A stretch of 64,000 bases of DNA from an uncultured archaeon. GTDB taxonomy: Archaea; Thermoproteota; Bathyarchaeia; 40CM-2-53-6; CALIRQ01. The notes below the pieces were generated by a model that did no database searches, had not been told where the DNA came from, and was given only the letters and a program-made list of their open reading frames with translations. The translations under genes and the position numbers were made by a program. The stretch lies in the NCBI GenBank assembly GCA_938042195.1, contig CALIRQ010000009.1:72262-136261 (forward strand). Direction: 5' to 3'. This document shows, piece after piece, positions 36,784 through 55,213 of this stretch (position 1 is its first letter; the number at the start of each line of letters is the position of its first letter).

Positions 36784-37674
36784 GTGAATGGTTTGAAGGG
36801 GATAATCGCGGGCCCAGCCTCCTCGGAACTCGGGGCCAAGATCGCTTCCGCGTTGGGCTGGAGGCTCATACCGTTGGAGTTTAAGGCGTTCCCAGATGGG
36901 GAATCCTATATAAGGATCGATTGGGAGGGCTTTGAAGGCTCCGACGTCGTCCTAATCCAATCAACCCATCCCCCCCAAGATAGGCATTTGATGCAATTGT
37001 TCCTGATGGCCGATGCCGCCAAGGATGCGGGGATGAGCATAGAGGCCGTCGTCCCCTACTTGGCCTATTCTAGGCAGGACAAGATGTTCAGGGCGGGCGA
37101 GGCGGTGAGCGTCAAAACCGTATGCAAGCTGATGAGGTGCTCCGGGATCGGGAAGCTCTTCGTCGTGGATGTGCATTCCGAGGAGGCCCTCGCCCGCTCG
37201 GGGATTCCAGCCAGAAATATAACGGCCATGTTAAGCATAGGCAGATATTTCTTGGGGAAGGGGTTGAAGGACCCAATCGTCGTTTCGCCCGACGAAGGGG
37301 CCAAGCGCCATGCCGAGAGGGTGGCCGGGATATTGGGTTGCGAGGCATCCAGCTTCAGGAAGGAGAGGGATCGCATCACCGGCGAGGTCTCTGTAACCCC
37401 CTCCGGGGCGCGCTTCTCGAGGAGGGACGTCGTGCTCGTCGACGATATGATCTCCACCGGGGGCAGCATGCTCAAGGCGATGGCTGCGATCAAGGCCGAG
37501 GGCCCCAATAGGATCTTTGTGGCTTGCACCCATCCGCTCCTCGGCGAGGGCGTTGGGAGAATGTTGCTGGAGGCCGGCGCCGAGGAGATCGTCGGGACCG
37601 ATTCCTTCCCGAACCCGTTCGAGAAGGTCTCTGTAGCCGACCCGATCGCGGAGGCCCTGAGGTCGAGCGCCTGA
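36784..37674 (+). CDS. prs: Ribose-phosphate pyrophosphokinase
   Basis: 296 aa with the PRPP synthase signature (VVLVDDMISTGGS) and an N-terminal AGPASSELG. Confidence 0.9.
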   Translation: MNGLKGIIAGPASSELGAKIASALGWRLIPLEFKAFPDGESYIRIDWEGFEGSDVVLIQSTHPPQDRHLMQLFLMADAAKDAGMSIEAVVPYLAYSRQDKMFRAGEAVSVKTVCKLMRCSGIGKLFVVDVHSEEALARSGIPARNITAMLSIGRYFLGKGLKDPIVVSPDEGAKRHAERVAGILGCEASSFRKERDRITGEVSVTPSGARFSRRDVVLVDDMISTGGSMLKAMAAIKAEGPNRIFVACTHPLLGEGVGRMLLEAGAEEIVGTDSFPNPFEKVSVADPIAEALRSSA

Positions 37675-38714
37675 TTGGGAGCCTCTTCTTCCTCCTCTCG
37701 AGGGATCACCCCACCCTGCCCCGGGCCGAGGTGGAGGCGATACTCCAAGCGGAGGGCTTTCGCTTCGAGATCATAAGCTCCCGGCCCGGCCTCCTGAGGT
37801 TGAGGGCTGATGCGGCGGCTCTGAGGGCGGTTGGGGCGAGAAGCCTGATGTGCAACCTCTGCGGGCTCGAGTTGGCGCATTGCGATGAGCTCGGGGAAGG
37901 GGCGATCCTGAGGGCTTGCCGCGATGTCGATCCCGGCCGTTGCTTGAGCCCAGGGAATGGGTTCGCCGTCAGGGTCCGGAGGCTCTTAGGCGCAGGGGGG
38001 CATTTGAGGAGCCCGGATTTGGAGAGATCCATAGGGGCCCTCATAGCCTCCGGATCCTGCGGGGCAAAGGTGGATCTGGAGAGGCCGGATAAATTGTTCT
38101 TGGGCATAATCTCCGATGATGGCTTCACGCTGGGGCTCGCGATGGCTGAGGGAGGCGCCAGATCCTCCGCCGCTAGGGCGCCGAGGAGGAGGCCGTTCTT
38201 CCATCCGTCCAGCATGCCGCCTAGGTTGGCCAGATGCATGGTCAACCTTTCAAGGGCCAAGGCCGGCGAGGCGTTCCTCGATCCATTCTGCGGGGCGGGG
38301 GGGATACTTCTCGAGGCGGCGTCGATGGGCTGCGAGGCAATCGGGTCGGACATCGATCTCAAGATGATCCGCGGGGCGAGGGAGAACTTGAGGCACTTCG
38401 GCCTACCATTCATCGGCCTAGTGCGATCAGACGCCGCCCTATTGCCCATCCGCGGGATTTGGGCGATCGCGACCGATCCTCCATACGGAAGGAGGGCCTC
38501 ATCGCTCAAGAGGCGCCTCGAGGAGATACTCGCCGGGTTCATCCCAAGGGCGCGCGATGCCCTAGAGCCGGGGGGCCATCTTTGCATAGCACATCCGAGC
38601 TCGATCGATGCGGCCTCGTTGGCGATCGAGGCGGGTTTCGATCCTATCGAGAGCCATGAGCTATTCGTCCACAAGGGGCTGACGAGGGTCGTATCAGTCT
38701 TCGGGAGGCGTTAA
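37675..38714 (+). CDS. THUMP-domain tRNA (guanine-N2)-methyltransferase (Trm11/Trm-G10-like)
   Basis: DPFCGAGGILLEA (SAM motif I) and DPPYG (motif IV). A TTG start is placed immediately after the prs stop. The track's longer N-terminus overlaps prs and is rejected. Confidence 0.75.
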
Positions 38715-38719
38715 GGGCC

Positions 38720-39613
38720 GTGGAGATTCGCTTCCTCGGGACCGGGGGGAGCATCCCGACCGGGTTCAGGGCCTCGCCATCGGTAGTCGTTAGGAGGGAT
38801 GAGGAGTTGCTGATGTTCGATTGCGGGGAAGGGACGCAGGTCCGCATGGCCTCTTGCGGGCTTGGCCTGAATAAGCCCATGAAGATATTCATCACCCATA
38901 TGCACGGGGATCATGTCCTCGGGCTCCCGGGGTTGATTATGAGCATGTCGCTCCTCGGCAGGACGAGGGAGCTTGAGATCTACGGCCCGCCAGGGATCCG
39001 GGAGTTCCTAGAATCGATCGGGAGGATATTGGGATATGATCCGAAGTTCCCGATCTCGATCGAGGAGGTCCGGGCCGGCGGGGCGGTGGAGGGAAGGGGC
39101 TACAGGGTCCTAGTAGAAGCGGCGGATCACGGGATCCCTTGCAACGCCTTCTCCCTAGAGGAGGGGGCCAAGAGGGAGTTCCTGCCAGAGAGGGCGATGG
39201 AGCTTGGGGTCCCGAAGGGGCCCCTTTGGAAGGAGCTCCAGCTTGGGAGGGCCGTTAGCATAAACGGGAGGATCGTGGAGCCGTCCCAAGTGCTCGGGGA
39301 GCTCAAGCGAGGGAGGAAGATAGTATACGCCTCCGATACTAGGCCCTCCGAGCCCATAATGAGCCTCTCCAGAGGCGCCGACATCCTAATCCACGATTCG
39401 ACATTCGACGATTCGAGGGCCGAGGAGGCCAAGGAGTATGGGCATTCCACCGCCAGCGAGGCGGCATCGGTGGCGAAGGGGGCCGAGGTCAGGGCCTTGA
39501 TCCTCTTCCACTTGAGCCCAATATATCGGGACCCGGCCCCTCTGCTCCTCCAAGCCAAGCGGATATTCCCAAACTCCATGGTCGCATATGATTCCATGGC
39601 GCTGGAGCTTTAG
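38720..39613 (+). CDS. rnz: Ribonuclease Z (tRNA 3' endonuclease)
   Basis: 297 aa metallo-beta-lactamase fold with HMHGDH, an exosite region and a C-terminal His. Confidence 0.9.
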   Translation: MEIRFLGTGGSIPTGFRASPSVVVRRDEELLMFDCGEGTQVRMASCGLGLNKPMKIFITHMHGDHVLGLPGLIMSMSLLGRTRELEIYGPPGIREFLESIGRILGYDPKFPISIEEVRAGGAVEGRGYRVLVEAADHGIPCNAFSLEEGAKREFLPERAMELGVPKGPLWKELQLGRAVSINGRIVEPSQVLGELKRGRKIVYASDTRPSEPIMSLSRGADILIHDSTFDDSRAEEAKEYGHSTASEAASVAKGAEVRALILFHLSPIYRDPAPLLLQAKRIFPNSMVAYDSMALEL

Positions 39614-40044
39614 CCCGATCCCGAGCGCCCCTCCGAGCCACGAGCGGCTGGCTCGGTAAGCCATTCGATGAGCGCGTCCGGGTCATCGCATTCCACCCTG
39701 ACGGATATAGGGCCCAAGGGCGATTCCCCGAAGGGCTGGGAGAAGGAGATCTTCCCCGCGAAGGCGGCCTGCTTATGCAAATGGAACTCCAAGGCGTTCC
39801 CGATTTTGGATGAGGACAAAATGGCCTTGGCGGCGCTCCTTATCCTCTCGGCCCCTATGAGGGACTTCAAGCGATCTAGCGCCTCGAGCCCCTCCGAGGA
39901 TCCCCTGAGGAGGGCCGAGCCGTTCCCAAGCCCCTCCTCAGCCAATCGCACGTTCGGGAATATATTCGCGATTGCCCTCCCCACCTTTTCTTGATCCTCG
40001 GTGGGGTTTACCATCGCGCTGACCTCTACCCTGATCTTATCCAC
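39610..40044 (-). CDS. UPF0201-family predicted RNA-binding protein (COG1931)
   Basis: 144 aa with MDKIRVEVSAMVNPTEDQEKV, resembling the archaeal UPF0201 N-terminus. It is paired with UPF0200 as in many archaea. Confidence 0.55.
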   Translation of the reverse strand: MDKIRVEVSAMVNPTEDQEKVGRAIANIFPNVRLAEEGLGNGSALLRGSSEGLEALDRLKSLIGAERIRSAAKAILSSSKIGNALEFHLHKQAAFAGKISFSQPFGESPLGPISVRVECDDPDALIEWLTEPAARGSEGRSGSG

Positions 40045-40589
40045 CTCTCGATCCTCCCCATGAGCCCCTTGAACTCCTCCTCCAAGTCCGCCAAGGTCCC
40101 CTCGTTCCGGATCACGAGGTCCGCGAGTGCTATCACATCGCCAACGCCGACCTTCAGCTCCCTTTCGTCCCTTTCCCTGAAATCCTCGGGGGACTTGGGA
40201 TCGTCCCCCCTCCCCCTCCTCAATAACCTTTCATACCTGAGCTTGGGCGGGGAATGCACCGCGACGACGATCACCTCGAAGCGCCTCCTGAACTCATCCA
40301 CCTCCTCCAAGTTCCTTATCCCCTCCACGACGACCACCTTCGATGGGTCCGATTCCACTTCCGCCGAGAGCCTCTTCACTATCGCGGCCCGACCCCCCTC
40401 CTCCCTCAACGCGAACATCAGGCCGCCCAAGGTTCGGGAATCCTTCGGAAGGCCCCGCCTCTCAGCTTCCCGGCGGACGATGTCCCCGCAGATGTACACC
40501 GGGTACCCGGCCTCCCTGAAGAGCCTCGAGAGCTCCCCCTTGCCGGAGCCGGGCATCCCTGTCGTGGCTATCACGAGCTTCGCGCTCAA
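40026..40589 (-). CDS. UPF0200-family P-loop nucleotide kinase (dephospho-CoA kinase-like/AAA)
   Basis: 187 aa with Walker A TGMPGSGKG and a kinase lid (RRGRGDD). Confidence 0.6.
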   Translation of the reverse strand: MSAKLVIATTGMPGSGKGELSRLFREAGYPVYICGDIVRREAERRGLPKDSRTLGGLMFALREEGGRAAIVKRLSAEVESDPSKVVVVEGIRNLEEVDEFRRRFEVIVVAVHSPPKLRYERLLRRGRGDDPKSPEDFRERDERELKVGVGDVIALADLVIRNEGTLADLEEEFKGLMGRIERWIRSG

Positions 40590-40647
40590 GCGCTCTCGCC
40601 CCGGGCGGACGCTCGCAGAAGATAAATAGAATCGGGCGGATTAATAT

Positions 40648-41226
40648 TTGCGAGCGCCGGGGGATGGCGCCTTGAGATGCTTCATCTCGGTTGACTTGGA
40701 GGATAGGGACTTCGTGGAAAGGGTGGGGAGGGTTCAACGCGACCTGCTGGGGATTTGCGGGGGCTTAAAGCTCGTTGAGCCCCAAAACCTCCACATAACC
40801 CTTAGGTTCTTGGGCGAGATCGATGAGCGGATGGCCTATGGGGTCTGCGAAGCGATAGGCGGGATTGAGTTCAACCCCTTCGAGGTGGAGCTGAGGGGCT
40901 TGGGGGCCTTCCCAAAGGACGGCTACGCCAATGTCATATGGATAGGGATCCGAGGGGGTCGAAGGGAGCTGGAGGAGGTATCGGGGAAGATCGAGTCGCG
41001 CTTGAGGGGGCTTGGCATCCCGCCGGATGAAAGGGGCTTCTCGCCGCATTTGACGATAGCGAGGGTGAAATCCCCCGGCTGTAGGGCGAAGTTCAAGGAA
41101 TTTCTCTCCGGCTCGAAGGAGCTGGAGTTCGGGAGGGTGCTCGTAGAATCGATAAGGCTCAAGAGGAGCGAGCTCTCGTCAGAGGGGCCCACGTATTATA
41201 CCCTTTGCGAGGCCCGCGCCAAATGA
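40648..41226 (+). CDS. thpR: RNA 2',3'-cyclic phosphodiesterase (2H phosphoesterase, ThpR/LigT)
   Basis: 192 aa with two HxT/SL motifs (HITLRF, HLTIAR). Confidence 0.85.
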   Translation: MRAPGDGALRCFISVDLEDRDFVERVGRVQRDLLGICGGLKLVEPQNLHITLRFLGEIDERMAYGVCEAIGGIEFNPFEVELRGLGAFPKDGYANVIWIGIRGGRRELEEVSGKIESRLRGLGIPPDERGFSPHLTIARVKSPGCRAKFKEFLSGSKELEFGRVLVESIRLKRSELSSEGPTYYTLCEARAK

Positions 41227-42659
41227 GGGATGTCTCCCCCGTCTTGGAGGAGGTCCTCCACGCCCTCCGCCCGGATGGGGCAGAGAGGAAGAGGATAATG
41301 GGGTTGGCGGAGGAGCTGATGAGGCGATTGGGGGAGGAGGTCCGAAGATCTGGGTTTGACATAGAGGTTAGGCTCGAGGGCTCGGTGGCGAAGGGGACGT
41401 GGATCAAGGGGGAGGCGGATCTGGATATATTCCTCAGGTTCCCGAGGGACTTCGAGAGGGGGGCTTTTCGCAAAATCGCCTTGGAGCTCGGGAAGAGGGC
41501 CCTCTCTGAGCATCAGCCGTACGAGAGGTACTCCGAGCACCCCTATGTGGAGGCGGTGGTGAATGGAGTGGTGGTGGATATCGTCCCCTGTTATCGGGTC
41601 GAGCCCAGGGATTGGCTCAGCTCCACGGATAGGACCCCATACCATACGAAGTATGTGATCGAAAGGCTCGGGGAGAGGGGGAAGGACGAGGTAAGGCTGC
41701 TCAAGAGGTTCTTGAGGGCCAATGGCCTCTACGGGGCCGATGCCAAGGTCAGGGGGTTCAGCGGAATGCTTTGCGAAACCCTGATCCTGAAGTATGGTTC
41801 GTTCGCCTCCCTCCTCGAGGGCGCCGCAGCTTGGGGGAGGCACGAGGTCATAGATGTGGAGGGCCATTATGCGGGTAGGGAGGAGGAGGCTAGAGAGCTC
41901 TTCGGGGAACCCCTTATAGTCATCGACCCGGTCGATGGGGGCAGGAACCTCGCCTCGGCCCTTTCGGAGGAGAACCTTTGGAGGTTCGTTGCCTTGGCTA
42001 GGGCGTTCTTGGAGGAGCCCTCGGCGGATTTCTTCTTCCCAAAGGAGGTGGTCCTCGGCCCAAGCGAGTTGAGGGCGGAGCTCGAAAGGAGGGGGTCCTG
42101 CCTCGTGATTCTAGCCTTTGGAGGGATCGATGCCGTTGTGGACGTCGTTTGGAGTCAGCTGAGGAAGTCGGAGGCAGTCCTCAGGCGAGCGCTCGAGGGG
42201 GAGGGGTTCAAGGTCTACAGAGCATCGGCGTGGACCGATGAGAGATCAATGAGCGCCATCGCATTCGAGTTGGAGGCGGGGGAGTTGCCGCCCTTGGAGC
42301 TCAGGATCGGCCCGCCGGTCCTCCGGAGGGCCGATTCCGAGAGGTTCTTGAGGAAGCATAGGGGCGCCAAGGATACGGTCGGCGAGCCTTGGGTTAGGGG
42401 TGATAGATGGGCCGTGGAGAAGCTGAGGAGGTTCAGGAGGGCTGGGGATGCGCTAGAGGGGTTCCTAGAGGGGGGAGGGGAGGCGTTGGGGATCCCGAAA
42501 ATGGTCGCTGAAGCGATCCGAAGGGGCCATGCCGTATTGATAAACGATCAGGTATCTTCACTCTTGGAGGACAACCAAAAGCTCAGCAAATTCCTAGCCG
42601 AGTTCTTAGGCGGTTGGCCCATGGCACGAGGGGGGATCGGGCCTCGAGCGACGAGGTGA
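41205..42659 (+). CDS. cca: CCA-adding enzyme (archaeal class I tRNA nucleotidyltransferase)
   Basis: 484 aa with GSVAKGTWIKGEADLDIFL (Pol-beta NT motif), matching the archaeal CCA architecture. Confidence 0.9.
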   Translation: MRGPRQMRDVSPVLEEVLHALRPDGAERKRIMGLAEELMRRLGEEVRRSGFDIEVRLEGSVAKGTWIKGEADLDIFLRFPRDFERGAFRKIALELGKRALSEHQPYERYSEHPYVEAVVNGVVVDIVPCYRVEPRDWLSSTDRTPYHTKYVIERLGERGKDEVRLLKRFLRANGLYGADAKVRGFSGMLCETLILKYGSFASLLEGAAAWGRHEVIDVEGHYAGREEEARELFGEPLIVIDPVDGGRNLASALSEENLWRFVALARAFLEEPSADFFFPKEVVLGPSELRAELERRGSCLVILAFGGIDAVVDVVWSQLRKSEAVLRRALEGEGFKVYRASAWTDERSMSAIAFELEAGELPPLELRIGPPVLRRADSERFLRKHRGAKDTVGEPWVRGDRWAVEKLRRFRRAGDALEGFLEGGGEALGIPKMVAEAIRRGHAVLINDQVSSLLEDNQKLSKFLAEFLGGWPMARGGIGPRATR

Positions 42660-43432
42660 GGATCGAGGTACCCCAAGGCCTCTCGTTCGAGCTCCACGGC
42701 CCCTTGCTGTGCTATCCCAAGCCCGATCCCTCTGAGTTCTCGAGAAGGGTTTCGGAGATGAGCCGCTTGGGCGTGAGGGGGCTGATCTTAGGCGGGCCCA
42801 AGGAGATCGGGCGGTTCCGGATCTTGGGGAAGGGGTGCACTAGCTTGGTTATCAAGGCCGAGGCGGCCGAGGGGATGGCGGCCCTCAAGGTGAGAAGGAT
42901 CGATGCCAACAGGCCGAGCATGGCGAGGGAGGCGGAACTGCTGGCGCTTGCAAACCGAGCCGGGATCGGCCCGAGGCTCATGGGGGCCTCGGAGAATTTC
43001 CTACTGATGGAGTTCGTGGAGGGTTACGATATATCGAGTTTATTGGATAGCTCCCTGGAGATGGGCCCCGGCCCGGAGGCGCTGAGGAGCGCCCTGCGGG
43101 CCCTCCTCCTTGACGCGTTCAAGCTGGATTCGATCGGTTTGGATCACGGCGAGCTGAGCAGGGCCGATGGGCACATCATGATAGCTCGGGACGGGAAGCC
43201 CTTCATATTGGATTTCGAATCGGCCAGCGTGAATCGGCGCCCCTCGAACCTCGCATCCCTCGCCCATTACCTCTTCCTATCCCGGCGCTCGGGCGGGCTC
43301 GCCTCAACCCTAGGGCGACCGGATCGAAAGGCCCTAATAGAGGCCCTCCGGGAATACAAAATGGGCCCATCGATCGAGCGCTTTCGGAAGGTCATGAGGA
43401 TCCTCGGCCTCGGCGAAGGAAAAGAAATATAG
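42614..43432 (+). CDS. Small archaeal Ser/Thr protein kinase-like protein (COG2112-like)
   Basis: Gly-loop LGKGCTSLV, a VAIK-like ALKVRR and a catalytic-loop-like LDHGELSRADGHIM. The true start may be the internal Met near 42758. Confidence 0.6.
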   Translation: MAHGTRGDRASSDEVRIEVPQGLSFELHGPLLCYPKPDPSEFSRRVSEMSRLGVRGLILGGPKEIGRFRILGKGCTSLVIKAEAAEGMAALKVRRIDANRPSMAREAELLALANRAGIGPRLMGASENFLLMEFVEGYDISSLLDSSLEMGPGPEALRSALRALLLDAFKLDSIGLDHGELSRADGHIMIARDGKPFILDFESASVNRRPSNLASLAHYLFLSRRSGGLASTLGRPDRKALIEALREYKMGPSIERFRKVMRILGLGEGKEI

Positions 43433-43456
43433 GCCCCTGGATGGCCCTCTAAGGGC

Positions 43457-43591
43457 GGGGCAGTCGTCTAGTTTGGTCCAGGATCCCAGAGGCCATCGGG
43501 GAGCCTGGGGCGCTGGAGACCGCTTCGAGCGGCCGAAGGTCGCGGGTTCAAAATGGCCCGAGCGGCCATGGGAATCCCGTCTGCCCCACCA
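43457..43591 (+). tRNA. tRNA with encoded CCA and two non-canonical introns; tentatively tRNA-Arg(UCG)
   Basis: GGGGCAG pairs with CUGCCCC, followed by A-CCA. U8, A14, G18G19 and A21 are present, plus an AGGUC variable region. The T-arm GCGGG-UUCAAA...CCCGU is interrupted by a 22-nt hairpin insert (AUGGCC-CGAGC-GGCCAU). About 33 nt are inserted between the D-arm and anticodon arm. The candidate anticodon loop is CUUCGAG. Confidence 0.6.
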
Positions 43592-43822
43592 AGGACCCCA
43601 TGGCGATTCGACTCAAGGATCTATGGGATCGTCCGCTCGGGGCTCGAAAACGCCCAGGTAGTGAACTCGGGGAGACATTCGAGGGAATTGGGGGGGGGCG
43701 CTCGAGGGAGCCGGGGCAAGCGAAGCTCATAGAGCTGGAGAGGAATCCATCGCCCAGCCATAGCCGGAGAAGCCCATGCGCCCATGAGCTCCGAAGTTCC
43801 GATCCTCGGAGAACAACACCAT

Positions 43823-45301
43823 TCAAGGGAGGCGCGACCCCCTCTCTCGATGCGGCGGAAGGATCCTCGCAGATCCCCCGAAGATCGCCTTGAACTCATC
43901 CCTTAGGAGCTCCGGCAGGGCGCGCCCCATATCCCTCGCGATCCCCCCCAAGGCCTTGCTCACTCCAGTCGAGTATTGAATCGCTCGCTTGGGGCGGCTG
44001 GCAATCCGCTCCGGGAGGCCGATCTCCTTGGCCAGCGCCCTGAGCAACACCTTTCTCTCCCCTCTCTCGGCATCGAGGAGGAGGCGAATGGGAAGGGAGA
44101 GGGCGAAGTCCACTATCCCGGTATCGGCGAATGGGATCCTGAGCTCCACTGATGACGCGGAGCTTATCTTATCATCGCGCTCGAAGTTCACCAGATGTGA
44201 GTTCCTTATATCCTTCAATAGCAACTCCCTAGCCAGCCGAGGGCCGCCGGAGCGATGGGCCCTCAGGGCCTTCATATAGCCCCCGAAGCATTCGTCCGCC
44301 CCCTGGCCCGTCAGCGCGACGGCGAAGCCCAAGGCCGACGCTTCCTCAAGAACCCAATAAAGCGGGATCCCGATAGCAACCTTCATCGGATCCGAATCCT
44401 CAATCAGCCAAAGGATCTTCCTCAGATCCCCCCTAACGTCCTCCGGCCCCTTCTCGACCTGAATGAGTTCGATTCCGATCTCCCCCGCGGCCCATTTCGC
44501 GAACTCGAGCTCCCCGCTGCCCCTCAGCGAGGCCGAGATCAATAGGACCTCCTTCCCAATCGCGCTCGCCATCCGGGCTATTATGGAGCTATCGAGGCCC
44601 CCCGAGAAAGCTATCGCAATGCGATCCGCATCGCGCAACCTGATCCTCAAGGAGTTCTCCATCAATTCCCCCAAGCGCGCCTTCGCATCCTCGATTCCCA
44701 GCCGCTCGATCCTCCGGCGCCCGATCCCCCGGGCCCTGCGGAACCTAGGCTCATCGCCCTCGACCACGCAAATCGATCCGGGCGGGAATGATTCGGCATC
44801 GGGTATGCCAATGGCCCAAAGCGCCTTGGCCTCGGAGGCGGCCGCGAAGACGCCCTCCCCCTTGCCGAAGTATAGGGGCTTCAACCCCAGCGGGTCCCTC
44901 CCCAGGATCAAGGAGTCCCCGCATAGCGCGGCGAACGCATAGGCCCCCTCGGCTTCGGCCAAGAGGCGTTCGAAGCGCTCCAATCCCCCGCCCCCCAAGA
45001 GCCCTCCAATGCCGCTTCGGCATTCGGGCGAGAAGACCCTCCCATCGAATGCGATCGGATCGCCCCCGGCCAAGATGGGCTGCGGCGAATCCCCCGGGAG
45101 GAGCCGCTTGAAATTATGCCCTATGGCCCTTGGGCCAATCCCCCTCAAATCCCAAGGATCCGCTGGGAAGATGACCCCGCTCGGATCGGCGATTCCGTAC
45201 CCGGTCCCTCGGTGATCTAAGGCCTTCAGCATCCTCGCCAAGGGGTTAGAAATGTCCCCCGATCCGGAGCTGGATATGGCGATGACCGAGCCCATTCCCA
45301 A
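43823..45301 (-). CDS. asnB: Asparagine synthetase B-like (class-II amidotransferase domain + PP-loop synthetase domain)
   Basis: 492 aa with the PP-loop AFSGGLDSS. The N-terminus is MGMGSVIA, without the catalytic Cys2. Confidence 0.8.
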   Translation of the reverse strand: MGMGSVIAISSSGSGDISNPLARMLKALDHRGTGYGIADPSGVIFPADPWDLRGIGPRAIGHNFKRLLPGDSPQPILAGGDPIAFDGRVFSPECRSGIGGLLGGGGLERFERLLAEAEGAYAFAALCGDSLILGRDPLGLKPLYFGKGEGVFAAASEAKALWAIGIPDAESFPPGSICVVEGDEPRFRRARGIGRRRIERLGIEDAKARLGELMENSLRIRLRDADRIAIAFSGGLDSSIIARMASAIGKEVLLISASLRGSGELEFAKWAAGEIGIELIQVEKGPEDVRGDLRKILWLIEDSDPMKVAIGIPLYWVLEEASALGFAVALTGQGADECFGGYMKALRAHRSGGPRLARELLLKDIRNSHLVNFERDDKISSASSVELRIPFADTGIVDFALSLPIRLLLDAERGERKVLLRALAKEIGLPERIASRPKRAIQYSTGVSKALGGIARDMGRALPELLRDEFKAIFGGSARILPPHRERGSRLP

Positions 45302-45310: not shown

Positions 45311-47539
45311 TCATGGCAATAGGGATCTCTGCTCAAACCCCTTTCGCTTCTCCTTCAGGAGTGCCCAATCCTCCGGGGCGATCTTCCCGCCCGCGTATTC
45401 CTTTATCCTCTTCGCGATCGCGGGGCCTATCGTCGGGACGCTGAGCAATTCACCAACGGTTGCCCTCCTGAGGCTCTCCTCATCCCTATAGCCGGCATTA
45501 TATAGCGCCCTCGCCCTAACCCTCCCCACCCCCTCGATCCTCACGAGGAACAGGAGCTCCCGCTTGACCCCATGCCTGACTCGGGGGATGAGCTCCTCGA
45601 GTACGCGCATGTATTCCCCCTTGCCCAATAGCTTCGAGATCTCCCTCGTCGCGTGGAGGAGCCATTCCGCGTTCTCGACGAGCCTGAGCAGGTCCCCCGG
45701 CTCCACCCCGTGCCTCTCCAAGATCCTCTCCTCGCCAACCTCCCCTATCCAATCCATCAGGACCGATGCGCATTTAACTTCCGCCAAGAACTCCTCATAC
45801 CCATAGTAGGATTCGGGGCTTAGGGGCTCCAATAGGAACTCGCCCTCGTGCTCCTCCGCCAATGCCTCGAGCCATTCGTATTCCCTGCGCCTCGGGTAGG
45901 GCCTCGGGGCCATATCCGGGGTCCTGGAGATGAGGTGGAGGAAGCTGAACTCCGTTATCCTCTCCGCGCCATTGAGGAGGCCGTCCCTGATTATGACGGC
46001 TGAGAGGGGATCTATGTAGAGCTCGGATACCCTCTTGCCGAACTCCGTGGCGAAGATCCTCCGCCGCCTGAGCTCGATCATGCCCTCCTTGTATAGGAAG
46101 GAGAGGACCTTCCCGAGCTTCGGCCTCACGCTCTCCATACCGTATTGGAAGGCGCAGAGGGTCTTCCCGAAGAAATCGCTCAAGCCCTCCTCGGAGCTCG
46201 CGTAGCCGGTCGCTAAGGTCGCCAATACATGCGGCCTGAGGACGCCCTCCATGGCCATCTTCGACCACAGCCTCTCCGGCTTGGCCATGACGTAGCTCTC
46301 CATCAGCATATCCCTCTCGTCCTCGCTCCTCGCGATCAATATGGCCTCACCGTAATCGTCGAACCTCGGCCTACCGGCCCTCCCGCAAAGTTGCTTATAC
46401 TCCAAGACCGAGATCGGGGATCTGCCGAAGCCTGGCTCGTACCTCTCGTGGCTACTTATTATCACGGATCTCGCGGGCAGGTTGACACCGGCCGCCAAGG
46501 TGGGCGTAGCGACCAAGGCCTTTATCCAACCATCCCTAAAGCCGTTCTCGATGATCTCCCTATCCCTCGTAGATAAGCCGGCATGGTGGAAGGCCACGCC
46601 ATCGGCCACGAGGCCCGAGAGGGCCTCGCTCAGCCTCGTTCGCGAATCGCCCTCCAAGATCGACCTCGAGATCGCCCTCAAGCGCTTAGCCTCCCCCCTC
46701 CCGAGGATGTGCTTCACGTATGCGGATGCCTTCCTCGCCATGCCCATCGCCGACCTCCTGGTATCGGAAAAGATCAAGACCTGGCCCCCCGACCTGAGGG
46801 TCTCCAAAGCCACGTCTATGACCGGATTCCCTGATTCCTGCGGGATCCTCCTCGATGAGCCATCGTTGAAGCAAACCTCCCCGTCGCAATATATCCCCTC
46901 CCTGAGGGGGACGGGCCTCCACTCGGTCGCGATGCGCTTCGCGCCAAGCCAATCGGCTATCTCGTCGATGTTGCTCACTGTGGCGCTCAGGGCCAGCACC
47001 CGGATCCTCGGGGCCACGGCCCTCAACCTTGTTAAGGTCGCCTCCAAGGTCGGCCCCCTATGGGGATCCGTTAGCAAATGAACCTCGTCCGCGACGACGA
47101 TGGAGACCTCCTCAAGCCATTTGGCCCTATGCCGGAGCAGGCTATCGGCTTTCTCGTTGGTGGATATGATGACGTCGTACCTGGAGAGGTGGGGATCGGA
47201 AGTGTCGTAATCGCCGCTCGTTATAGCGATCCTGACCTTGCCCCCCGACGCCTTCTCGAGGCCCTTGTACTTGGAGAAATCCCCGTACTTCTCCCTGGCC
47301 AGGGCCCTCAATGGCGTGAGGTAAAGCGCCTTCCCGCTCCTCTCGAGGACCTCCTTCATGACGACTATCTCGGCCACGAGGGTCTTGCCGCTCGCGGTCG
47401 GGCTCGCCAGGACCAGGTTCCCCTCATCCAATACGCCCGACCTGAGGGCATCGGCTTGGGGAGGGTATAACTCCCTATAGCCATTCTCGGTAAGGACTCG
47501 CATCAGCTCTTTGGGTATGTCCAGCTCCTCGATCCCCAA
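45311..47539 (-). CDS. hel308: ATP-dependent DNA helicase Hel308 (Hjm, Ski2-like)
   Basis: 742 aa with SPTASGKT, a DEVH box, a winged helix, and a C-terminal HhH (GIGPAIAKRI). Confidence 0.9.
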   Translation of the reverse strand: MGIEELDIPKELMRVLTENGYRELYPPQADALRSGVLDEGNLVLASPTASGKTLVAEIVVMKEVLERSGKALYLTPLRALAREKYGDFSKYKGLEKASGGKVRIAITSGDYDTSDPHLSRYDVIISTNEKADSLLRHRAKWLEEVSIVVADEVHLLTDPHRGPTLEATLTRLRAVAPRIRVLALSATVSNIDEIADWLGAKRIATEWRPVPLREGIYCDGEVCFNDGSSRRIPQESGNPVIDVALETLRSGGQVLIFSDTRRSAMGMARKASAYVKHILGRGEAKRLRAISRSILEGDSRTRLSEALSGLVADGVAFHHAGLSTRDREIIENGFRDGWIKALVATPTLAAGVNLPARSVIISSHERYEPGFGRSPISVLEYKQLCGRAGRPRFDDYGEAILIARSEDERDMLMESYVMAKPERLWSKMAMEGVLRPHVLATLATGYASSEEGLSDFFGKTLCAFQYGMESVRPKLGKVLSFLYKEGMIELRRRRIFATEFGKRVSELYIDPLSAVIIRDGLLNGAERITEFSFLHLISRTPDMAPRPYPRRREYEWLEALAEEHEGEFLLEPLSPESYYGYEEFLAEVKCASVLMDWIGEVGEERILERHGVEPGDLLRLVENAEWLLHATREISKLLGKGEYMRVLEELIPRVRHGVKRELLFLVRIEGVGRVRARALYNAGYRDEESLRRATVGELLSVPTIGPAIAKRIKEYAGGKIAPEDWALLKEKRKGFEQRSLLP

Positions 47540-47567
47540 AGCCGAAGCCCTCCCCCATCGGACCGGG

Positions 47568-49616
47568 TCATATCAAGGCCCTCTTGTACTGACCGGGCTT
47601 CGGCGAGTATATTATCCCCTCCTTAACCAGCTGGTTCAGTACAGAGGCCACTTCCGCCTCGCTCATGCCATATTGGCTCGCGAGCGTTCCCTTCAGCCTT
47701 TCCTCCTCCGCCGCCCCGTACTCCTTCTCCTCCTTGGCTATCTCCCCCATGATCGCCTGCATCTTATCCCTCAGGCTCTTGGGCTTGCCGGTCATTATGA
47801 CGTCGATATCGATCTTACCGGTCGCAACGTCGATCCCGACGTGCTGTAGGGAGATCGTCATTAACCTTATAGCGGCCTTAGCGTCCTCGGAGGTGACCTT
47901 GTCCCTGAGGAAGCACCTGGCCCTAGCCTCGGATATCCTGATCAGGGCCTCTAGCTGCCTCGGGGTTATGGCGATCGGGGAATCGGAGGCGCCTGAGGTC
48001 GCCCTCATCTTGAGGTAGAAGTCCTTCAATTCCCTTATGGCCTCATCGGTCAGGGTGGGCGTGATCCTCTTCGCGTAGCTTATGTACTTCCTCAGGATCT
48101 CGGGCGGCAATGGGGAGACCTCGGGCATGGGGGTGGCCCTGATCTGATGGGTCCGAAGTATGTGGTCCGACATCTTCCTATCGAGTTCTTCGTCGGGCAT
48201 ATCCCTGAAGACGAATATGAGGTCGAACCTGGATAGTATGGTTATGGGGAGGTTTATGTTCTCGCTAACGTTCCTATAGGGATCGTATCTGCCCAGCGCC
48301 GGGTTAGCGGCGGCGAGCACGGAAGTCCTGGCGTTAAGCGTGGCGACGATGCCCCCCTTGGCCACTGAAACGGTTTGCTGCTCCATCGCTTCATGTATGG
48401 CTACCCTATCCTCCGGCCTCATCTTGTCTATCTCGTCTATCGAGCAGACCCCCTTATCCGCCAATACCAAGGCCCCGGCTTCGAGGGCCATCCCGCCGGA
48501 TTTCTCCCTTATAACGGCCGCCGTCAAGCCGGCTGCGGTGGATCCCCTGCCGCTCGTATACAATCCCCTAGGGGCGACCCTGGCGACGTATTGCAGGAGC
48601 GCGCTCTTGGCAGTTCCTGGGTCCCCGACCAGCAATATGTTCATATCACCCCGAAGGTTTATGCCATCAGGGAGCTCCTTCCTGACGCCGCCGTGGAGGA
48701 GGTACAATATGGCCTCCTTCACATCCTCATATCCATAGATCGATGGCGCTATGGACATCTTCAGCCTATTCAGGATCCACGGATCCTTCGAGAGGCCCTT
48801 AAGGTATCTCTCATCCTCCGGCGTTATCTCGAGGATCTCCGCCTCCCTGCCGGATACGTCGACGTAGTTGGCATCGAGGTAGAGCTCGAAGGTCCTGAGC
48901 CCTCCCCTCCTCCCCGCCATCGTTTGCTGCGCCCTCACTATGCCGGTTATCGACGCCCTATCGCCAGGCCTTGCCGCATCGACCAAATCGTCCCTAAGGG
49001 TCACGTCTATGGACCTTGGGAGCTGGCCGGGTGGGAGCTCCTCCGGCTTCTCTTGGGCGCGTATCTCCTGCGAATCTATGAAGCTCGACTCCTTCTCGTC
49101 GAAATCGAATTGCCTCGCCTTGCAATTGGCACAGAAGAGCGGGACCCTCATGAGCGGCCCCTTCTGCTCGACGAGGGTTATCTCGTTGCACCTCCTGCAC
49201 CTGAAGGCCGCCTTGACGACAAGCGGCTGTACCGGGGTCGCCCTTACGATTATGGCATCGATCATCACCAATTTCCCGATGTGATCGGCTCTTATCCTCC
49301 TGAGCGACAGCCTCTCGGGCAAGCCCCTGAACCTGACGAAGAACTCCCCGACCTGCTCCGCGTATTCGGGATCCTCGATCCTCATCTGCTCCAAGATGGA
49401 TGCATTGGCGTACTTCAGGGCCTCGTCCGGGTTGTTGACGATCTCCTTCGCCAGCTCGGGGTCGAAGGCCATTAGGTCCTCGAAGTCGACGATCAGTGAT
49501 TTGGAGCCCGTGAGGGCCATTTGGGACAGCCTCCTCCTGTACTTTTGCTCCTCGATCTCGGTCCTGAAGCCCCTCAGGAATTCCCTGAAGCTCTCTTGGA
49601 GCTCCGCCGTGCTCAT
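47568..49616 (-). CDS. mcm: Replicative helicase MCM
   Basis: 682 aa with a Zn finger (CRRCNE...CANCK), Walker A GDPGTAKS, Walker B IDEIDKM, an Arg finger SRFD and a C-terminal wH. Confidence 0.95.
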   Translation of the reverse strand: MSTAELQESFREFLRGFRTEIEEQKYRRRLSQMALTGSKSLIVDFEDLMAFDPELAKEIVNNPDEALKYANASILEQMRIEDPEYAEQVGEFFVRFRGLPERLSLRRIRADHIGKLVMIDAIIVRATPVQPLVVKAAFRCRRCNEITLVEQKGPLMRVPLFCANCKARQFDFDEKESSFIDSQEIRAQEKPEELPPGQLPRSIDVTLRDDLVDAARPGDRASITGIVRAQQTMAGRRGGLRTFELYLDANYVDVSGREAEILEITPEDERYLKGLSKDPWILNRLKMSIAPSIYGYEDVKEAILYLLHGGVRKELPDGINLRGDMNILLVGDPGTAKSALLQYVARVAPRGLYTSGRGSTAAGLTAAVIREKSGGMALEAGALVLADKGVCSIDEIDKMRPEDRVAIHEAMEQQTVSVAKGGIVATLNARTSVLAAANPALGRYDPYRNVSENINLPITILSRFDLIFVFRDMPDEELDRKMSDHILRTHQIRATPMPEVSPLPPEILRKYISYAKRITPTLTDEAIRELKDFYLKMRATSGASDSPIAITPRQLEALIRISEARARCFLRDKVTSEDAKAAIRLMTISLQHVGIDVATGKIDIDVIMTGKPKSLRDKMQAIMGEIAKEEKEYGAAEEERLKGTLASQYGMSEAEVASVLNQLVKEGIIYSPKPGQYKRALI

Positions 49617-50164
49617 CGGGCATCCCCCTCAAGTGCCGCGAAGCCCTTCCAAGCCATTATCACGGATCGCACGCCCTCCAACAACAACCTCTCCTCCGGC
49701 GTGAGGTTCTTAAGCGCCTCCTCCGATTCGGCGCCGGCGGAGGCTATCGATAGGATCTTCCGGATCCTGCAGTTCAATATCTCCTCGAACAATCCCATGG
49801 CCTTCTCAAGCTCCATCAGCTTGGAGCCGTCCGCCTTGGAAGCGGCCCTCAAGTTCGATAGGTACTCCTTCATCTTGAAATAGAAATCCTTTCCTACGGC
49901 CGATATCTGCCTAGTCGCCGGGATCGTCTCCCTCCAATGGATCTTCGAGAGCTGGATCAGGTCCATCCTCGCGGAATCGGCCGGCTTCGCCAATCCGGCC
50001 TCGGAGAGCTTCCGAGAGATCCAATATAGCACCTCAATCTCCGCCCCGGCGCTTGCCTCCAGATCTCCCCCGCAGACCCTGAGCTTGACGGGCTTGAGGA
50101 GGCGCATTTTGATCGGAGAGTTCTCGAACTCGATATGTATATCCCCGAAGCTCATGCCGCCCAA
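49613..50164 (-). CDS. gins23: GINS complex subunit (Gins23-like, B-domain then A-domain order)
   Basis: 183 aa, translationally coupled upstream of mcm as in Sulfolobus. The N-terminal part is beta-rich and the C-terminal part is helical with CRIRKIL. Confidence 0.55.
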   Translation of the reverse strand: MGGMSFGDIHIEFENSPIKMRLLKPVKLRVCGGDLEASAGAEIEVLYWISRKLSEAGLAKPADSARMDLIQLSKIHWRETIPATRQISAVGKDFYFKMKEYLSNLRAASKADGSKLMELEKAMGLFEEILNCRIRKILSIASAGAESEEALKNLTPEERLLLEGVRSVIMAWKGFAALEGDAR

Positions 50165-52962: not shown

Positions 52963-52966
52963 AGCC

Positions 52967-55196: not shown

Positions 55197-55213
55197 ATCC
55201 CCCTCGCGGCCGT

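Follow-up and report, generated by a model that had tools for sequence, protein, structure and literature searches.

The genes between positions 36784 and 43591 of the window (the whole 64 kb stretch of Bathyarchaeia DNA analyzed here) are one instance of an ancient and widespread archaeal tRNA-maturation gene cluster; here it comprises three transcription units followed by a tRNA gene. Its tRNA side is made up of aTrm11, RNase Z, the CCA-adding enzyme and ArkI, all four of them proven tRNA enzymes, together with one RNA-end enzyme (ThpR) and the tRNA gene. Within the cluster lie UPF0200 and UPF0201, for neither of which was a function reported in the literature searched, in agreement with the first-pass annotation of this DNA. 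UPF0200 is probably an adenylate kinase (AK)-type phosphotransferase that would act in complex with UPF0201 on a nucleotide-phosphate acceptor, and it looks more like a nucleotide (adenylate-type) kinase than an RNA-repair 5'-OH kinase.

Gene content of the cluster

Family and profile searches, together with the ORF table, locate all the genes previously named here, with coordinates that match within a few bases. The layout is prs-aTrm11-RNase Z on the forward strand, UPF0200-UPF0201 on the reverse strand and ThpR-CCA-arkI on the forward strand, followed by the tRNA gene. The genes are closely spaced, and several overlap. The functions given below for the two forward-strand units are those predicted from firm family membership.

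The first unit would supply a PRPP synthase, a G10 N2-methyltransferase and a 3'-trailer endonuclease. It is headed by prs (36784..37674, ribose-phosphate diphosphokinase, or PRPP synthase; TIGR01251, E = 6e-78; PF13793 and PF00156), which is a nucleotide-supply gene and encodes no tRNA enzyme. The following gene, aTrm11 (37671..38714), encodes a THUMP and class I methyltransferase protein (UPF0020; PF01170, E = 2.6e-30), predicted to make m2G10/m2,2G10 in tRNA. Its best solved relatives are tRNA G10 N2-dimethyltransferases (PDB 5e71, E = 2.5e-35; 6zxw, 1.3e-32), while the THUMP match is weak and the match to TIGR01177 (E = 2e-75) falls under the cutoff of that model. The start of aTrm11 is uncertain: the TTG that serves as start over the prs stop in a relative is CTG here, and the nearest in-frame upstream start is TTG at 37524. 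RNase Z (38720..39613), the tRNA 3'-trailer endonuclease (TIGR02651, 331.5 bits vs a cutoff of 293), carries the HMHGDH motif and is convergent with UPF0201, the two stops overlapping by 4 nt.

The enzymes of the second forward-strand unit would open 2',3'-cyclic phosphate ends, add or repair CCA, and place a 2'-phosphate on U47. ThpR/LigT (40648..41226, with a second possible in-frame start, TTG at 40672) is a 2H RNA 2',3'-cyclic phosphodiesterase (TIGR02258, 140.9 bits vs a cutoff of 65.7; PF02834), whose extended motifs HITLRF (residues 49-54) and HLTIAR (residues 134-139) agree with HxTxxF / HxTxxR of E. coli ThpR (PMC4201822). The archaeal class I CCA-adding enzyme (41205..42659; TIGR03671, 429 bits vs a cutoff of 281; PF09249, PF21133 and PF01909) is encoded by cca, which overlaps thpR by 22 nt. 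The last gene (42656..43432) had been described as a small kinase, correctly as to kinase, but its identity as ArkI was missed: it encodes a homolog of the ePK-like tRNA U47 2'-O-kinase (PDB 7vnx, TkArkI, E = 4e-14), and the P-loop KG, N-lobe Lys and Glu, HG(E) and DFE of the two proteins line up. It starts at a GTG over the cca stop (GTGA), and its 258-aa product is 78% identical to that of the 258-aa gene of a relative. The arkI-cca operon is already known from the literature, a cca-arkI operon having been described in S. tokodaii (PMC9095486).

The cluster is tRNA-centered, as the first-pass annotation had it, and its arrangement is conserved across phyla. The further claim that seven of its genes act on tRNA holds for aTrm11, RNase Z, the CCA enzyme, ArkI and (at the level of RNA ends) ThpR, but not for prs; for UPF0200 and UPF0201, also counted there, a tRNA activity is at most putative. 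Assuming that tRNA-processing genes make up about 2% of all archaeal genes (our own estimate), five such genes among eight consecutive ones are expected about 4e-4 times per genome. Independently of this number, the clustering is not due to chance, because it is conserved across phyla.

Conservation of the neighborhood

Synteny was analyzed in 80 genome loci around UPF0200 homologs, using unbiased clustering and HMMs built iteratively from the window proteins. UPF0201 lies directly downstream of UPF0200 in 54/79 loci, and an MBL ORF resembling RNase Z (the true enzyme or its β-CASP paralog) lies within 2.5 kb in 42/68. A divergent ThpR is present in 35/73 loci and CCA in 27/61 (about 45-48% for ThpR(-CCA)). 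None of the percentages from this survey is phylogenetically balanced, the 80 loci being the best tblastn matches to a Bathyarchaeia-centered query. The adjacency of the pair to thpR and cca in other archaea, which the first-pass annotation had proposed as a check, is therefore strongly conserved, and the link of the UPF0200/UPF0201 cluster to tRNA is supported. Less frequent neighbors are aTrm11 (20/59 loci) and ArkI (6/55), and prs adjoins aTrm11 and RNase Z in 17/59 loci with enough flank. The complete order of the window is found in Bathyarchaeia, Nitrososphaerota (L004), Desulfurococcales (L021, L064) and Asgard archaea (L057, L075, L078); aTrm11 is absent from L060 and L074, both of them marine thaumarchaeote loci.

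Two other nuclease-like families recur beside the pair. A small β-CASP nuclease, closest to the ligase-associated exonuclease TIGR04122 (E = 3e-29), occurs in soil Bathyarchaeia and lies immediately 3' of UPF0201 in 20 Bathyarchaeia loci. An MJ1311-family TIM-barrel protein with distant similarity to EndoIV shows translational coupling with the kinase in a locus where UPF0200 and UPF0201 are fused, and is encoded directly downstream in 16 more loci, other lineages included. Around the fusion gene, CCA and ThpR are likewise upstream and RNase Z convergent.

UPF0200, its partner and its probable acceptor

UPF0200 (40026..40589, reverse strand, TTG start) is a P-loop kinase that belongs with AK1 and the UMP-CMP kinases; its T. 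kodakarensis homologs were assigned to arCOG01045 in the paper on them. The Sulfolobus ortholog SSO1041 (PDB 3h0k, E = 8e-33; 3lw7, E = 7e-33) was crystallized 'bound to AMP'; the AMP in 3lw7 may occupy the ATP site. The family profile matches AK1 at 7e-13 and UMP/CMP kinase at 1.6e-8, both above CoaE, and the structures nearest to the AF2 model (pLDDT 94) are SSO1041, followed by AK1, AK5 and UMP/CMP kinases. Residues K17, R62, R92, E96, R118, R125, R127, R140 and N162 are invariant in 81/81 sequences, and R39 is kept in 80/81. The GDxxR, EGxR and RLxxRGRxDD segments align with AMP-binding and lid residues of AK1, and the matching residues are kept in 74-81 of 81 sequences.

The start of UPF0201 (39610..40044, reverse strand; PF01877/DUF54, E = 1.3e-15; PDB 3d7a, 2nwu, 2pzz and 3c9g) overlaps the 3' end of UPF0200 by 19 nt, and the two are naturally fused in 307-aa proteins (P0222-P0229) and in AF_1395. 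COG1931 was linked to the UPF0201 family in a paper on that family. The protein has a uL5-like RRM fold; beyond its own family, only ribosomal uL5 proteins resemble it in fold. Its conserved residues are T15, E16, K20, N27, K91, Q92 and E107-SPLG. According to its crystallographers, UPF0201 is unlikely to bind RNA through its surface (PMC2596488); bulk charge gives no answer either way.

We propose that UPF0200 genuinely transfers phosphate, by the chemistry of adenylate kinases (AK1, UMP/CMP kinase). Its acceptor site would hold a nucleoside 5'-phosphate group through R39 and R92 and would read a specific base through E96, the positional counterpart of the Gln with which adenylate kinases read adenine. 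It would work in complex with UPF0201, consistent with the translational coupling and occasional fusion of their genes. For the acceptor, a nucleotide phosphate, not a 5'-hydroxyl, is the most likely identity, as suggested by the conserved residues and the alignment to AK1 (22-24% identity), which together make up the evidence on this point. It may quite conceivably be a free NMP, in which case UPF0200 would be co-regulated with tRNA genes, much as ribosomal-protein operons contain adk and cmk, and the presence of prs would also be explained. Most archaea may lack a known GMP kinase, an idea on which literature searches returned nothing. Housekeeping NMP kinases normally do without a dedicated, sometimes fused, partner protein. 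A more tentative candidate acceptor is the 5'-terminal nucleotide of RNA or tRNA presented by UPF0201; since nearly all the recurring neighbors cleave phosphodiesters (ThpR, RNase Z, the β-CASP nuclease and the MJ1311-type protein), a polymer-end substrate fits them better than a free nucleotide.

The first-pass annotation instead read the cluster as an end-healing toolkit like T4 Pnk-ligase or Pnkp/Hen1, in which UPF0200, together with UPF0201, phosphorylates polynucleotide 5'-OH ends alongside 2',3'>p removal by ThpR and 3' rebuilding by the CCA enzyme. A variant of our own would have UPF0200 prepare cleaved RNA for exonucleolytic decay that depends on a 5'-phosphate. We consider this model unlikely. 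The kinase domain of T4 Pnk is itself adenylate-kinase-like, the invariant D36 of UPF0200 could act as a general base, the uL5-like fold of UPF0201 is an RNA-binding one, and the β-CASP and MJ1311-family neighbors would cut phosphodiesters and leave ends. However, archaeal RtcB joins 3'-P or >p ends straight to 5'-OH with no need for a 5' kinase, and 3' end repair by the CCA enzyme requires none either. Dephospho-CoA kinase activity, one of the small-metabolite roles named as a competing possibility, is ruled out, purified T. kodakarensis homologs TK1334 and TK2192 showing none (PMC6650551), which counts in favor of the model. The product of characterized ThpR is a 2'-phosphate end rather than the diol that CCA addition would need (PMC4201822). 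No polynucleotide kinase (T4 Pnk, Clp1 or PNKP) is among the 60 profile matches listed for UPF0200 or its best 50 fold matches, and searches covering the 64 kb window and ±8 kb in relatives found no ligase, 3'-phosphatase, KptA, RtcB or Clp1. As a candidate 5'-OH kinase, UPF0200 is thus not supported: the acceptor-phosphate arginines and lid aspartates of AK1 are kept, and its ortholog was crystallized with AMP.

It is very unlikely that the clustering is a frozen ancestral gene order of no functional meaning, with the pair serving an unrelated pathway. In keeping with such an origin, prs travels with aTrm11 and RNase Z despite having no known tRNA role, and in Thermococcus and Methanomicrobia UPF0200 lies downstream of Hel308 (immediately so in Thermococcus), without thpR-cca. 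The Hel308 of the window sits in a replication cluster with MCM, GINS, RFC and Cdc6. Against it, the divergent thpR/UPF0200 junction (0-300 bp) persists in Bathyarchaeia, Nitrososphaerota, Desulfurococcales, Asgard archaea and the fusion-protein lineage, which would be hard to maintain without selection for co-regulation, and RNase Z stays beside the pair even where thpR-cca is missing (L049, L062, L079).

Archaea already possess a separate Fap7 ortholog, and least probable of all is an AK-like ATPase that, as Fap7/AK6 does in small-subunit rRNA maturation, would serve with UPF0201 as an assembly or release factor on RNPs or tRNA-processing enzymes, with no transferase activity in vivo. The AK-like fold, the ribosomal-protein (uL5) fold of the obligate partner and the location among RNA-processing genes would suit such a factor (Fap7 binds ribosomal protein uS11, according to a paper cited within PMC8305020), but the full NMP-kinase acceptor-site and lid constellation and the base-reading position, which a pure ATPase would not need, are kept over several phyla.

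Predicted promoters and the three-intron tRNA gene

The divergent UPF0200 and thpR genes are separated by 58 bp (40590..40647), containing two TATA-like A/T-rich boxes, aagataaatag (40619-40629) and attaatattt (40640-40649, extending 2 nt into the thpR ORF), and this spacer is predicted to hold back-to-back promoters. In most loci that have ThpR, its start likewise lies 0-300 bp from that of UPF0200, on the opposite strand.

The intron-rich tRNA reported earlier is present as tRNA-Pro(GGG) with an encoded CCA (43457..43591, forward strand), 43591, the end coordinate given before, being the A of the CCA. The unspliced gene has no match by ARAGORN or Rfam, but ARAGORN returns a perfect cloverleaf after removal of three segments: I1 (43490-43503, 14 nt, position 30/31), I2 (43519-43538, 20 nt, position 45/46) and I3 (43553-43574, 22 nt, position 59/60). 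The exons are the same in two relatives (L081 and L083), and all intragenic differences fall inside predicted intron loops. A TATA-like box, AAATATA (43425..43431), precedes the tRNA 5' end by 26-32 nt and overlaps the arkI stop codon; it is kept in relatives, whereas the leader right after it diverges, and it is the predicted promoter of tRNA-Pro.

Gene content and layout of the cluster

Every gene that the first-pass annotation had placed at 36784-43591 is present there, as judged from the ORF table together with Pfam, NCBIfam and PDB searches, and the nearest database proteins come from Candidatus Bathyarchaeia MAGs. Judged by their spacing, the genes form three transcription units: prs-aTrm11-rnz and thpR-cca-arkI, both on the plus strand, and between them UPF0200-UPF0201 on the minus strand.

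In the first unit, prs (36784-37674, +; TIGR01251, E = 6e-78) overlaps the gene for a THUMP + UPF0020 methyltransferase (ending at 38714, +), archaeal Trm11 (aTrm11). Its best solved relatives are the tRNA G10 N2-dimethyltransferases PDB 5e71 (E = 2.5e-35) and 6zxw (E = 1.3e-32), and it matches PF01170 (E = 2.6e-30) and contains the DPPY motif as TDPPYG; the THUMP match is weak (17 bits, cutoff 20.6), and the TIGR01177 match of 254 bits lies below its cutoff of 316. The start of aTrm11 is uncertain within 37524-37680: in the related locus L081 a TTG start sits on the prs stop (TTGA), the window has CTGA there, and the options are a non-canonical CTG or ATT, or a TTG at 37524 that overlaps prs by 150 nt. 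After a gap of 5 nt follows the gene for RNase Z (38720-39613, +; TIGR02651, 331.5 bits, cutoff 293), whose translation contains the HxHxDH motif as HMHGDH.

The minus-strand unit consists of UPF0200 (40026-40589, -; matching SSO1041, PDB 3h0k, E = 8e-33) and UPF0201 (39610-40044, -; PF01877/DUF54, matching PDB 3d7a, 2nwu and 2pzz), which overlap by 19 nt, and the 3' end of the unit and the RNase Z stop share 4 nt. At its other end, the divergent starts of UPF0200 and thpR flank a 58-bp spacer with two A/T-rich boxes, putative back-to-back archaeal promoters.

In the third unit, ThpR (40648-41226, +; TIGR02258, 140.9 bits, cutoff 65.7) carries the 2H motifs HITLRF (residues 49-54) and HLTIAR (residues 134-139), corresponding to the extended HxTxxF and HxTxxR motifs that define the E. 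coli ThpR subfamily (PMC4201822). Its gene overlaps by 22 nt that of the archaeal class I CCA-adding enzyme (41205-42659, +; TIGR03671, 429 bits, cutoff 281), in which all three domains (PF01909, PF09249 and PF21133) were found, and the arkI gene then begins with a GTG placed on the cca stop (junction GTGA). A linkage of LigT and CCA genes in archaea was reportedly noted in 2002 by Mazumder et al. in work on 2H phosphoesterases. In the lineage with a fused UPF0200-UPF0201 protein (L085:3495-4068), thpR is called as two pieces of 101 and 103 aa with one LigT_PEase half each, either a frameshift/pseudogene or a split gene.

The unannotated "small kinase" behind cca is re-labelled here as a probable ArkI orthologue by sequence, ArkI (COG2112/AQ578) being the archaeal RNA kinase responsible for 2'-phosphouridine at tRNA position 47 (PMC9095486). 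The ePK-like protein matches TkArkI (TK2051, PDB 7vnx; phmmer E = 4e-14) over residues 64-260 of its 272-aa ORF, and the aligned residues include KG of the P-loop, Lys and Glu of the N-lobe and DFE of the metal loop. Mutagenesis of TkArkI identified K32/G33, K51, E65, H130, Q132, K137, D149 and K201 as required residues (PMC9095486). In the alignment with TkArkI, the window protein retains KG, the Lys and Glu, and one residue in each of three motifs (H in HGQ, D in DFE, K in YKR); it differs in having HGE for HGQ (Q132 to E), YKM for YKR (R202 to M), G at the K137 position and hence no equivalent of that lysine, and ∼25 additional N-terminal residues. YKR is retained in a 78%-identical relative. 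A cca-arkI operon, in which the CCA enzyme gene is likewise directly followed by an ePK-like kinase gene, is known in Sulfurisphaera tokodaii (STK_09520-STK_09530; PMC9095486, Ohira et al. 2022), and the adjacency in the window is therefore already-known biology, although here thpR joins the unit.

The components of the cluster are known families. The present analysis adds the recognition of ArkI, a reconstructed tRNA gene, the evidence from fusion proteins, the cross-phylum synteny of UPF0200/UPF0201 with thpR-cca and rnz-aTrm11-prs, and a residue-level case for UPF0200 as a putative AK-type kinase whose base-reading position is occupied by an invariant Glu.

Conservation of the neighbourhood across archaea

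Gene context was compared in 80 loci around UPF0200 homologues, one genome per species, with a query alignment of 13 sequences. All ORFs of these loci were searched with iterated HMMs seeded by the window proteins, and all neighbours were also clustered without reference to the window proteins; the two approaches agree. Among loci with sufficient flank, UPF0201 lies directly after UPF0200 in 54/79, a divergent ThpR gene lies within 0.8 kb of UPF0200 in 35/73, CCA lies behind ThpR in 27/61, aTrm11 and prs are near UPF0200 in 20/59 and 17/59, and ArkI is beside CCA in 6/55, proportions that are not balanced frequencies because the sample is skewed to Bathyarchaeia and the HMMs overlook divergent UPF0201 copies. 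Despite this bias, the recurrence across phyla excludes a chance grouping. The count of RNase Z-like neighbours takes in a beta-CASP paralogue, and the true RNase Z cluster comprises 31 loci.

The complete gene order of the window occurs in Bathyarchaeia, Nitrososphaerota (L004), Desulfurococcales (L021, L064) and Asgard archaea (L057, L075, L078). Two marine thaumarchaeote loci (L060, L074) have the same order minus aTrm11, and in Hydrothermarchaeota (L026) UPF0200-UPF0201 are found together with RNase Z-aTrm11-prs. The adjacency of UPF0200/UPF0201 to thpR-cca is thus conserved in other archaea, and the link to tRNA drawn in the first pass holds. In Thermoproteota, Nitrososphaerota, Asgard archaea and some Euryarchaeota, thpR-cca(-arkI) and RNase Z-aTrm11-prs accompany UPF0200 and its uL5-like partner, and the cluster is a conserved tRNA-maturation neighbourhood, most parts of which are understood.

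Other neighbours recur in subsets of the loci. An AP_endonuc_2 TIM-barrel protein of the MJ1311 family lies directly 3' of UPF0200 in 16 loci including Methanomicrobia (for example L049:10543-11316), and in the fusion locus L085 its gene (6921-7661) is translationally coupled to the fused UPF0200-UPF0201 gene by a 4-nt overlap. This protein matches PDB 3wqo (MJ1311 family, E = 7e-39), is distantly related to the TTHB071 protein (PDB 3ayt), and might act as a phosphoesterase partner. In ∼20 soil Bathyarchaeia loci, including L010, L017, L019, L025, L029, L036, L041, L065, L068 and L071 (L071:10960-11976), a 338-aa MBL + RMMBL (beta-CASP) nuclease is encoded directly 3' of UPF0201 on the same strand. 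Its nearest families are TIGR04122 (annotated as a ligase-associated DNA damage response exonuclease; E = 3e-29, a score under the cutoff) and CPSF73/Ysh1. The window lacks this nuclease, and RNase Z converges there instead. In Thermococcus and Methanomicrobia, Hel308 is encoded upstream of UPF0200 on the same strand, immediately so in Thermococcus; it was considered as a cluster member and excluded, since in the window it sits with MCM-GINS-RFC-Cdc6.

UPF0200, its UPF0201 partner and their possible substrates

UPF0200 corresponds to arCOG01045, a family that almost every archaeon encodes; for a long time it carried the wrong annotation of dephospho-CoA kinase, and its function is described as unclear (PMC6650551). 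The family is probably essential in archaea, and our full-text literature search found no functional characterisation of UPF0200 or UPF0201. Dephospho-CoA kinase (CoaE) can be rejected: the matches to PF01121 (20.8 bits, cutoff 27) and TIGR00152 (19 bits, cutoff 65) fall short, and the purified T. kodakarensis members TK1334 and TK2192 have no dephospho-CoA kinase activity (PMC6650551).

A profile of 19 UPF0200 members retrieves AK1 adenylate kinases (7e-13) and UMP/CMP kinases (1.6e-8), both before CoaE. The AlphaFold model of UPF0200 (pLDDT 94) is nearest to SSO1041, followed by AK1, AK5 and UMP/CMP kinases, with CoaE and shikimate kinase later; the SSO1041 structure 3lw7 was deposited as "bound to AMP". 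Polynucleotide kinases of the T4 Pnk/Clp1/PNKP type are absent from the best 60 of 172 profile matches (E <= 1) and from the top 50 Foldseek matches of the model.

The HMM alignment places GDxxR (D36, R39) of UPF0200 on AK1 D41/R44, EGxR (R92) on AK1 R97, and RLxxRGRxDD (R125, R127, D129, D130) on the AK1 lid residues R132, R138, D140 and D141. These equivalents (R39, R92, R125, R127, D129 and D130) are conserved in 74-81 of 81 UPF0200 sequences, with R39 in 80. Across the many phyla in this alignment no substitution occurs at K17, R62, R92, E96, R118, R125, R127, R140 or N162, and the window protein carries all 10 positions that are fully invariant. E96, four residues past R92, aligns with AK1 Q101, the adenine-reading glutamine of adenylate kinases. 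UPF0200 thus shares with AK1 and UMP/CMP kinases the fold, the P-loop, the acceptor-phosphate arginines of GDxxR and (D/E)GxR and the RLxxRGRxDD lid, but differs in its low identity (only 21-24%), in E96 replacing the base-reading Gln, in the extra invariant R62, R118 and N162, and in having a dedicated partner protein. The predicted active site is of the NMP-kinase (AK1/UMP-CMP kinase) type, and its conservation suggests an acceptor that carries a phosphate beside a specific base, which argues for nucleotide-kinase chemistry over hydroxyl phosphorylation. In addition, UPF0200 resembles, over its C-terminal half, the kinase-like domain at the N terminus of NCBIfam NF041025 (E = 1.6e-8), the anti-phage dCTP deaminase family. 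The latter domain handles nucleotides, which is a small extra hint of a nucleotide substrate.

Structures of UPF0201 proteins resemble ribosomal protein L5, and their authors deemed RNA binding unlikely (PMC2596488); the structural paper of 2008 described no motif conserved throughout DUF54. In a Foldseek search with the confidently modelled UPF0201 half, DUF54 structures are followed by uL5 and by nothing else. In the 61 UPF0201 sequences encoded beside UPF0200, conserved polar residues are found at T15-E16 (directly following strand 1), K20, N27, K91-Q92 and E107-S-P-L-G111 (window numbering), a set that suggests a defined binding or catalytic site.

The two proteins also occur as natural fusions, namely AF_1395 and the 307-aa proteins P0222-P0229, in which the kinase is joined directly to UPF0201; at the locus of the latter, CCA and ThpR genes lie upstream and RNase Z is convergent. 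In the predicted structure of the natural fusion the kinase half has pLDDT < 50, because just four near-identical fusion sequences covered it, and the model carries no inter-domain inference. Bulk charge and pI of UPF0200/UPF0201 give no discrimination when compared with the known RNA enzymes of the cluster. The previously solved members SSO1041/SSO1042 (S. solfataricus) and AF_1395 (A. fulgidus; 3h0k, 3lw7, 2nwu and 3c9g) belong to the same families, with the kinase followed by the uL5-like domain, the pair adjacent or fused, and ∼36% identity between their kinase and the window UPF0200. Those entries came without genomic context or function, whereas for the window pair the context is a neighbourhood with thpR-cca and RNase Z-aTrm11-prs that recurs across phyla. 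Synteny, fusion and the NMP-kinase active site together make a conserved hypothetical protein experimentally tractable.

Genomic context points to a link of the pair with RNA, probably tRNA, on account of the predicted divergent promoter shared with thpR-cca, the convergence with RNase Z, the nuclease and phosphoesterase neighbours, and the coupled or fused uL5-fold partner. The acceptor is more likely than not a nucleoside 5'-phosphate group, which the active-site residues would suit. Of the two forms of this reading we tentatively favour a free NMP; the terminal nucleotide of an RNA presented by UPF0201 is the less likely one. The free-NMP reading would explain the presence of prs in the cluster, and by analogy it has a precedent in adk and cmk, which are embedded in ribosomal-protein operons (the spc operon and cmk-rpsA) as nucleotide kinases that lie amid translation genes without acting on the machinery. 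Those kinases are standalone enzymes with known substrates, whereas UPF0200 has a coupled or fused partner and RNA-end enzymes as neighbours. An ordinary nucleotide kinase would close a pathway gap, a useful yet unsurprising outcome. One sub-hypothesis would have UPF0200 fill the place of a putatively missing archaeal GMP kinase; the literature search returned no statement for or against it.

A possible but rather doubtful alternative is that UPF0200-UPF0201 form an RNA-directed phosphotransferase of AK ancestry, in which the uL5-fold subunit would dock tRNA or another structured RNA and the kinase would phosphorylate the terminal nucleotide. The target would be a 5'-phosphate, a 5'-OH, or a 2'/3' end produced by ThpR, RNase Z or the beta-CASP nuclease. 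If true, the RNA-directed phosphotransferase would establish a new class of kinases acting on RNA ends, would be the missing piece of a pan-archaeal tRNA end-surveillance pathway, and would give a role to a protein that is among the few near-universal ones in archaea still without an assigned function.

The first-pass annotation had instead read the cluster as an RNA end-healing toolkit akin to Pnkp/Hen1 or T4 Pnk-ligase, with UPF0200 as a 5'-OH polynucleotide kinase. The likeness to T4 Pnkp + Rnl1 and bacterial Pnkp/Hen1 lies in the co-location of genes for a kinase, a cyclic-phosphate esterase and a 3'-end enzyme, and ThpR has itself been termed an "end healing" enzyme (PMC4201822). Unlike those systems, the cluster has no ligase and no Hen1-type methyltransferase, the kinase is outside the Pnk/Clp1 family, the genes are in separate transcription units, and the esterase is a 2H enzyme with a 2'-phosphate product rather than a DxDxT or calcineurin-type phosphatase. 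RNA ligase, RtcB, RtcA and the Hen1 domain were found neither in any scanned ORF of the window nor within ±8 kb in relatives, and no 3'-phosphatase, KptA or Clp1 was found in the 64-kb window. Moreover, the product of characterised ThpR ends in a 2'-phosphate (PMC4201822). Neither ligation by archaeal RtcB nor CCA repair requires a 5' kinase, and we consider 5'-OH phosphorylation unlikely. The first-pass interpretation is thus supported in part: the tRNA link and the conserved adjacency stand, the 5'-OH healing kinase does not.

A linkage of UPF0200/UPF0201 devoid of meaning and a Fap7-like ATPase role for UPF0200 are both improbable. A "2'-phosphate cycle", in which ArkI writes the mark, KptA erases it with NAD+, ThpR opens Appr>p, and PncA and Prs recycle nicotinamide, was rejected as the main explanation because there is no KptA and PncA is adjacent in 1/80 loci besides close relatives. 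The pair is a good, tractable lead on a near-universal archaeal protein, by itself no new kind of system.

The three-intron tRNA-Pro(GGG) gene and the flanking regions

The cluster ends with a tRNA-Pro(GGG) gene (43457-43591, +) with encoded CCA and three introns. Neither ARAGORN, even with anticodon-loop introns allowed, nor Rfam (in gathering and E-value modes) found a tRNA at 43.45-43.6 kb. An acceptor stem of 7 bp (GGGGCAG...CUGCCCC-A-CCA) and a T-loop with an interruption can be made out by eye, and the gene was solved by enumerating deletions and testing each product with ARAGORN. Removal of intron 1 (43490-43503, 14 nt, position 30/31), intron 2 (43519-43538, 20 nt, position 45/46) and intron 3 (43553-43574, 22 nt, position 59/60) gives a perfect cloverleaf with G37, the variable loop AGGUC, the T-loop UUCAAAU, A73 and the encoded CCA, in which ARAGORN assigns a 7-bp acceptor stem, a 5-bp anticodon stem and a 5-bp T stem with one G-U pair. 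The intron-rich tRNA proposed in the first pass, and its end coordinate, were therefore right.

BHB pairing was judged by inspection, with cleavage assumed after the second bulge base. On this basis, the motif is complete in intron 3 (hBHBh', with H UUCA/UGGG, the bulges AAA and AAU, and h' UGGCC/GGCCA), near-complete in intron 2 (3/4 H bases paired, h' CCGC/GCGG), and only relaxed in intron 1 (H UCCC/GGGG, no outer helix). The RNAfold MFE structure includes the intron 2 and intron 3 hairpins. An AAATATA box lies 26-32 nt 5' of the tRNA, on the arkI stop. A relative with 84%-identical UPF0200 has the same tRNA gene with different flanks; in L081 and L083 the exons are identical, and 5 substitutions and 1 indel all fall within the three intron loops.

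Multi-intron tRNA genes with non-canonical BHB introns have reportedly been described in Thermoproteales by Sugahara (2008) and Fujishima (2010). The likeness extends to three short introns at non-canonical positions with BHB-like junctions and to a gene missed by standard tRNA finders; the window differs in its Bathyarchaeia host and in the merely relaxed motif of intron 1. A three-intron tRNA overlooked by standard tools bears on estimates of the tRNA complement in Bathyarchaeia MAGs. Elsewhere in the window, Rfam detects a 92-nt tRNA at 60216-60307 (-; 54.8 bits) that ARAGORN misses, presumably a further intron-containing tRNA, while tRNA-Ala(GGC) at 63504-63581 is found by both. In the marine thaumarchaeote locus L060 (7247-7320), an intronless tRNA-Pro(GGG) adjoins arkI in the opposite orientation to that of the window tRNA, which may be a remnant of shared synteny or coincidence.

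To the left of the cluster are genes for PncA, a CBS protein, a GPN GTPase, an ATP-grasp protein, DUF7121, a protein of the purine-nucleoside-phosphorylase family, UPP synthase and SMC-ScpA-ScpB. To the right are an AsnB-like PP-loop protein, Hel308, MCM, GINS, glutamate dehydrogenase, the RFC small and large subunits and Cdc6/Orc1 (55214-56704); the stretch from 45311 to 57000 is, from its predicted genes, a replication neighbourhood, and a replication origin may lie next to cdc6. The flanking genes add nothing to the tRNA theme, and the cluster limits drawn in the first pass are kept.

Between the tRNA and the asnB-like gene, relatives encode a 477-aa PAS/GAF/DUF835 sensor (L081:3500-4933), where the window instead has ∼230 nt of non-coding DNA with nine consecutive G (43592-43822), an indel between close relatives. 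Class II glutamine amidotransferases need an N-terminal Cys2. The AsnB-like protein (43823-45301, -) starts MGMGSVIAIS and lacks this residue, and its GATase matches are weak and its PP-loop Asn_synthase domain strong, so that it may not be a true asparagine synthetase; in the Hydrothermarchaeota locus L026 a homologue is encoded 259 bp upstream of UPF0200. An Lhr-type helicase (11656-14781, -; 1041 aa, with DEAD, DEAD_assoc and WH_Lhr), encoded 22 kb upstream of the cluster, appears unrelated to it.
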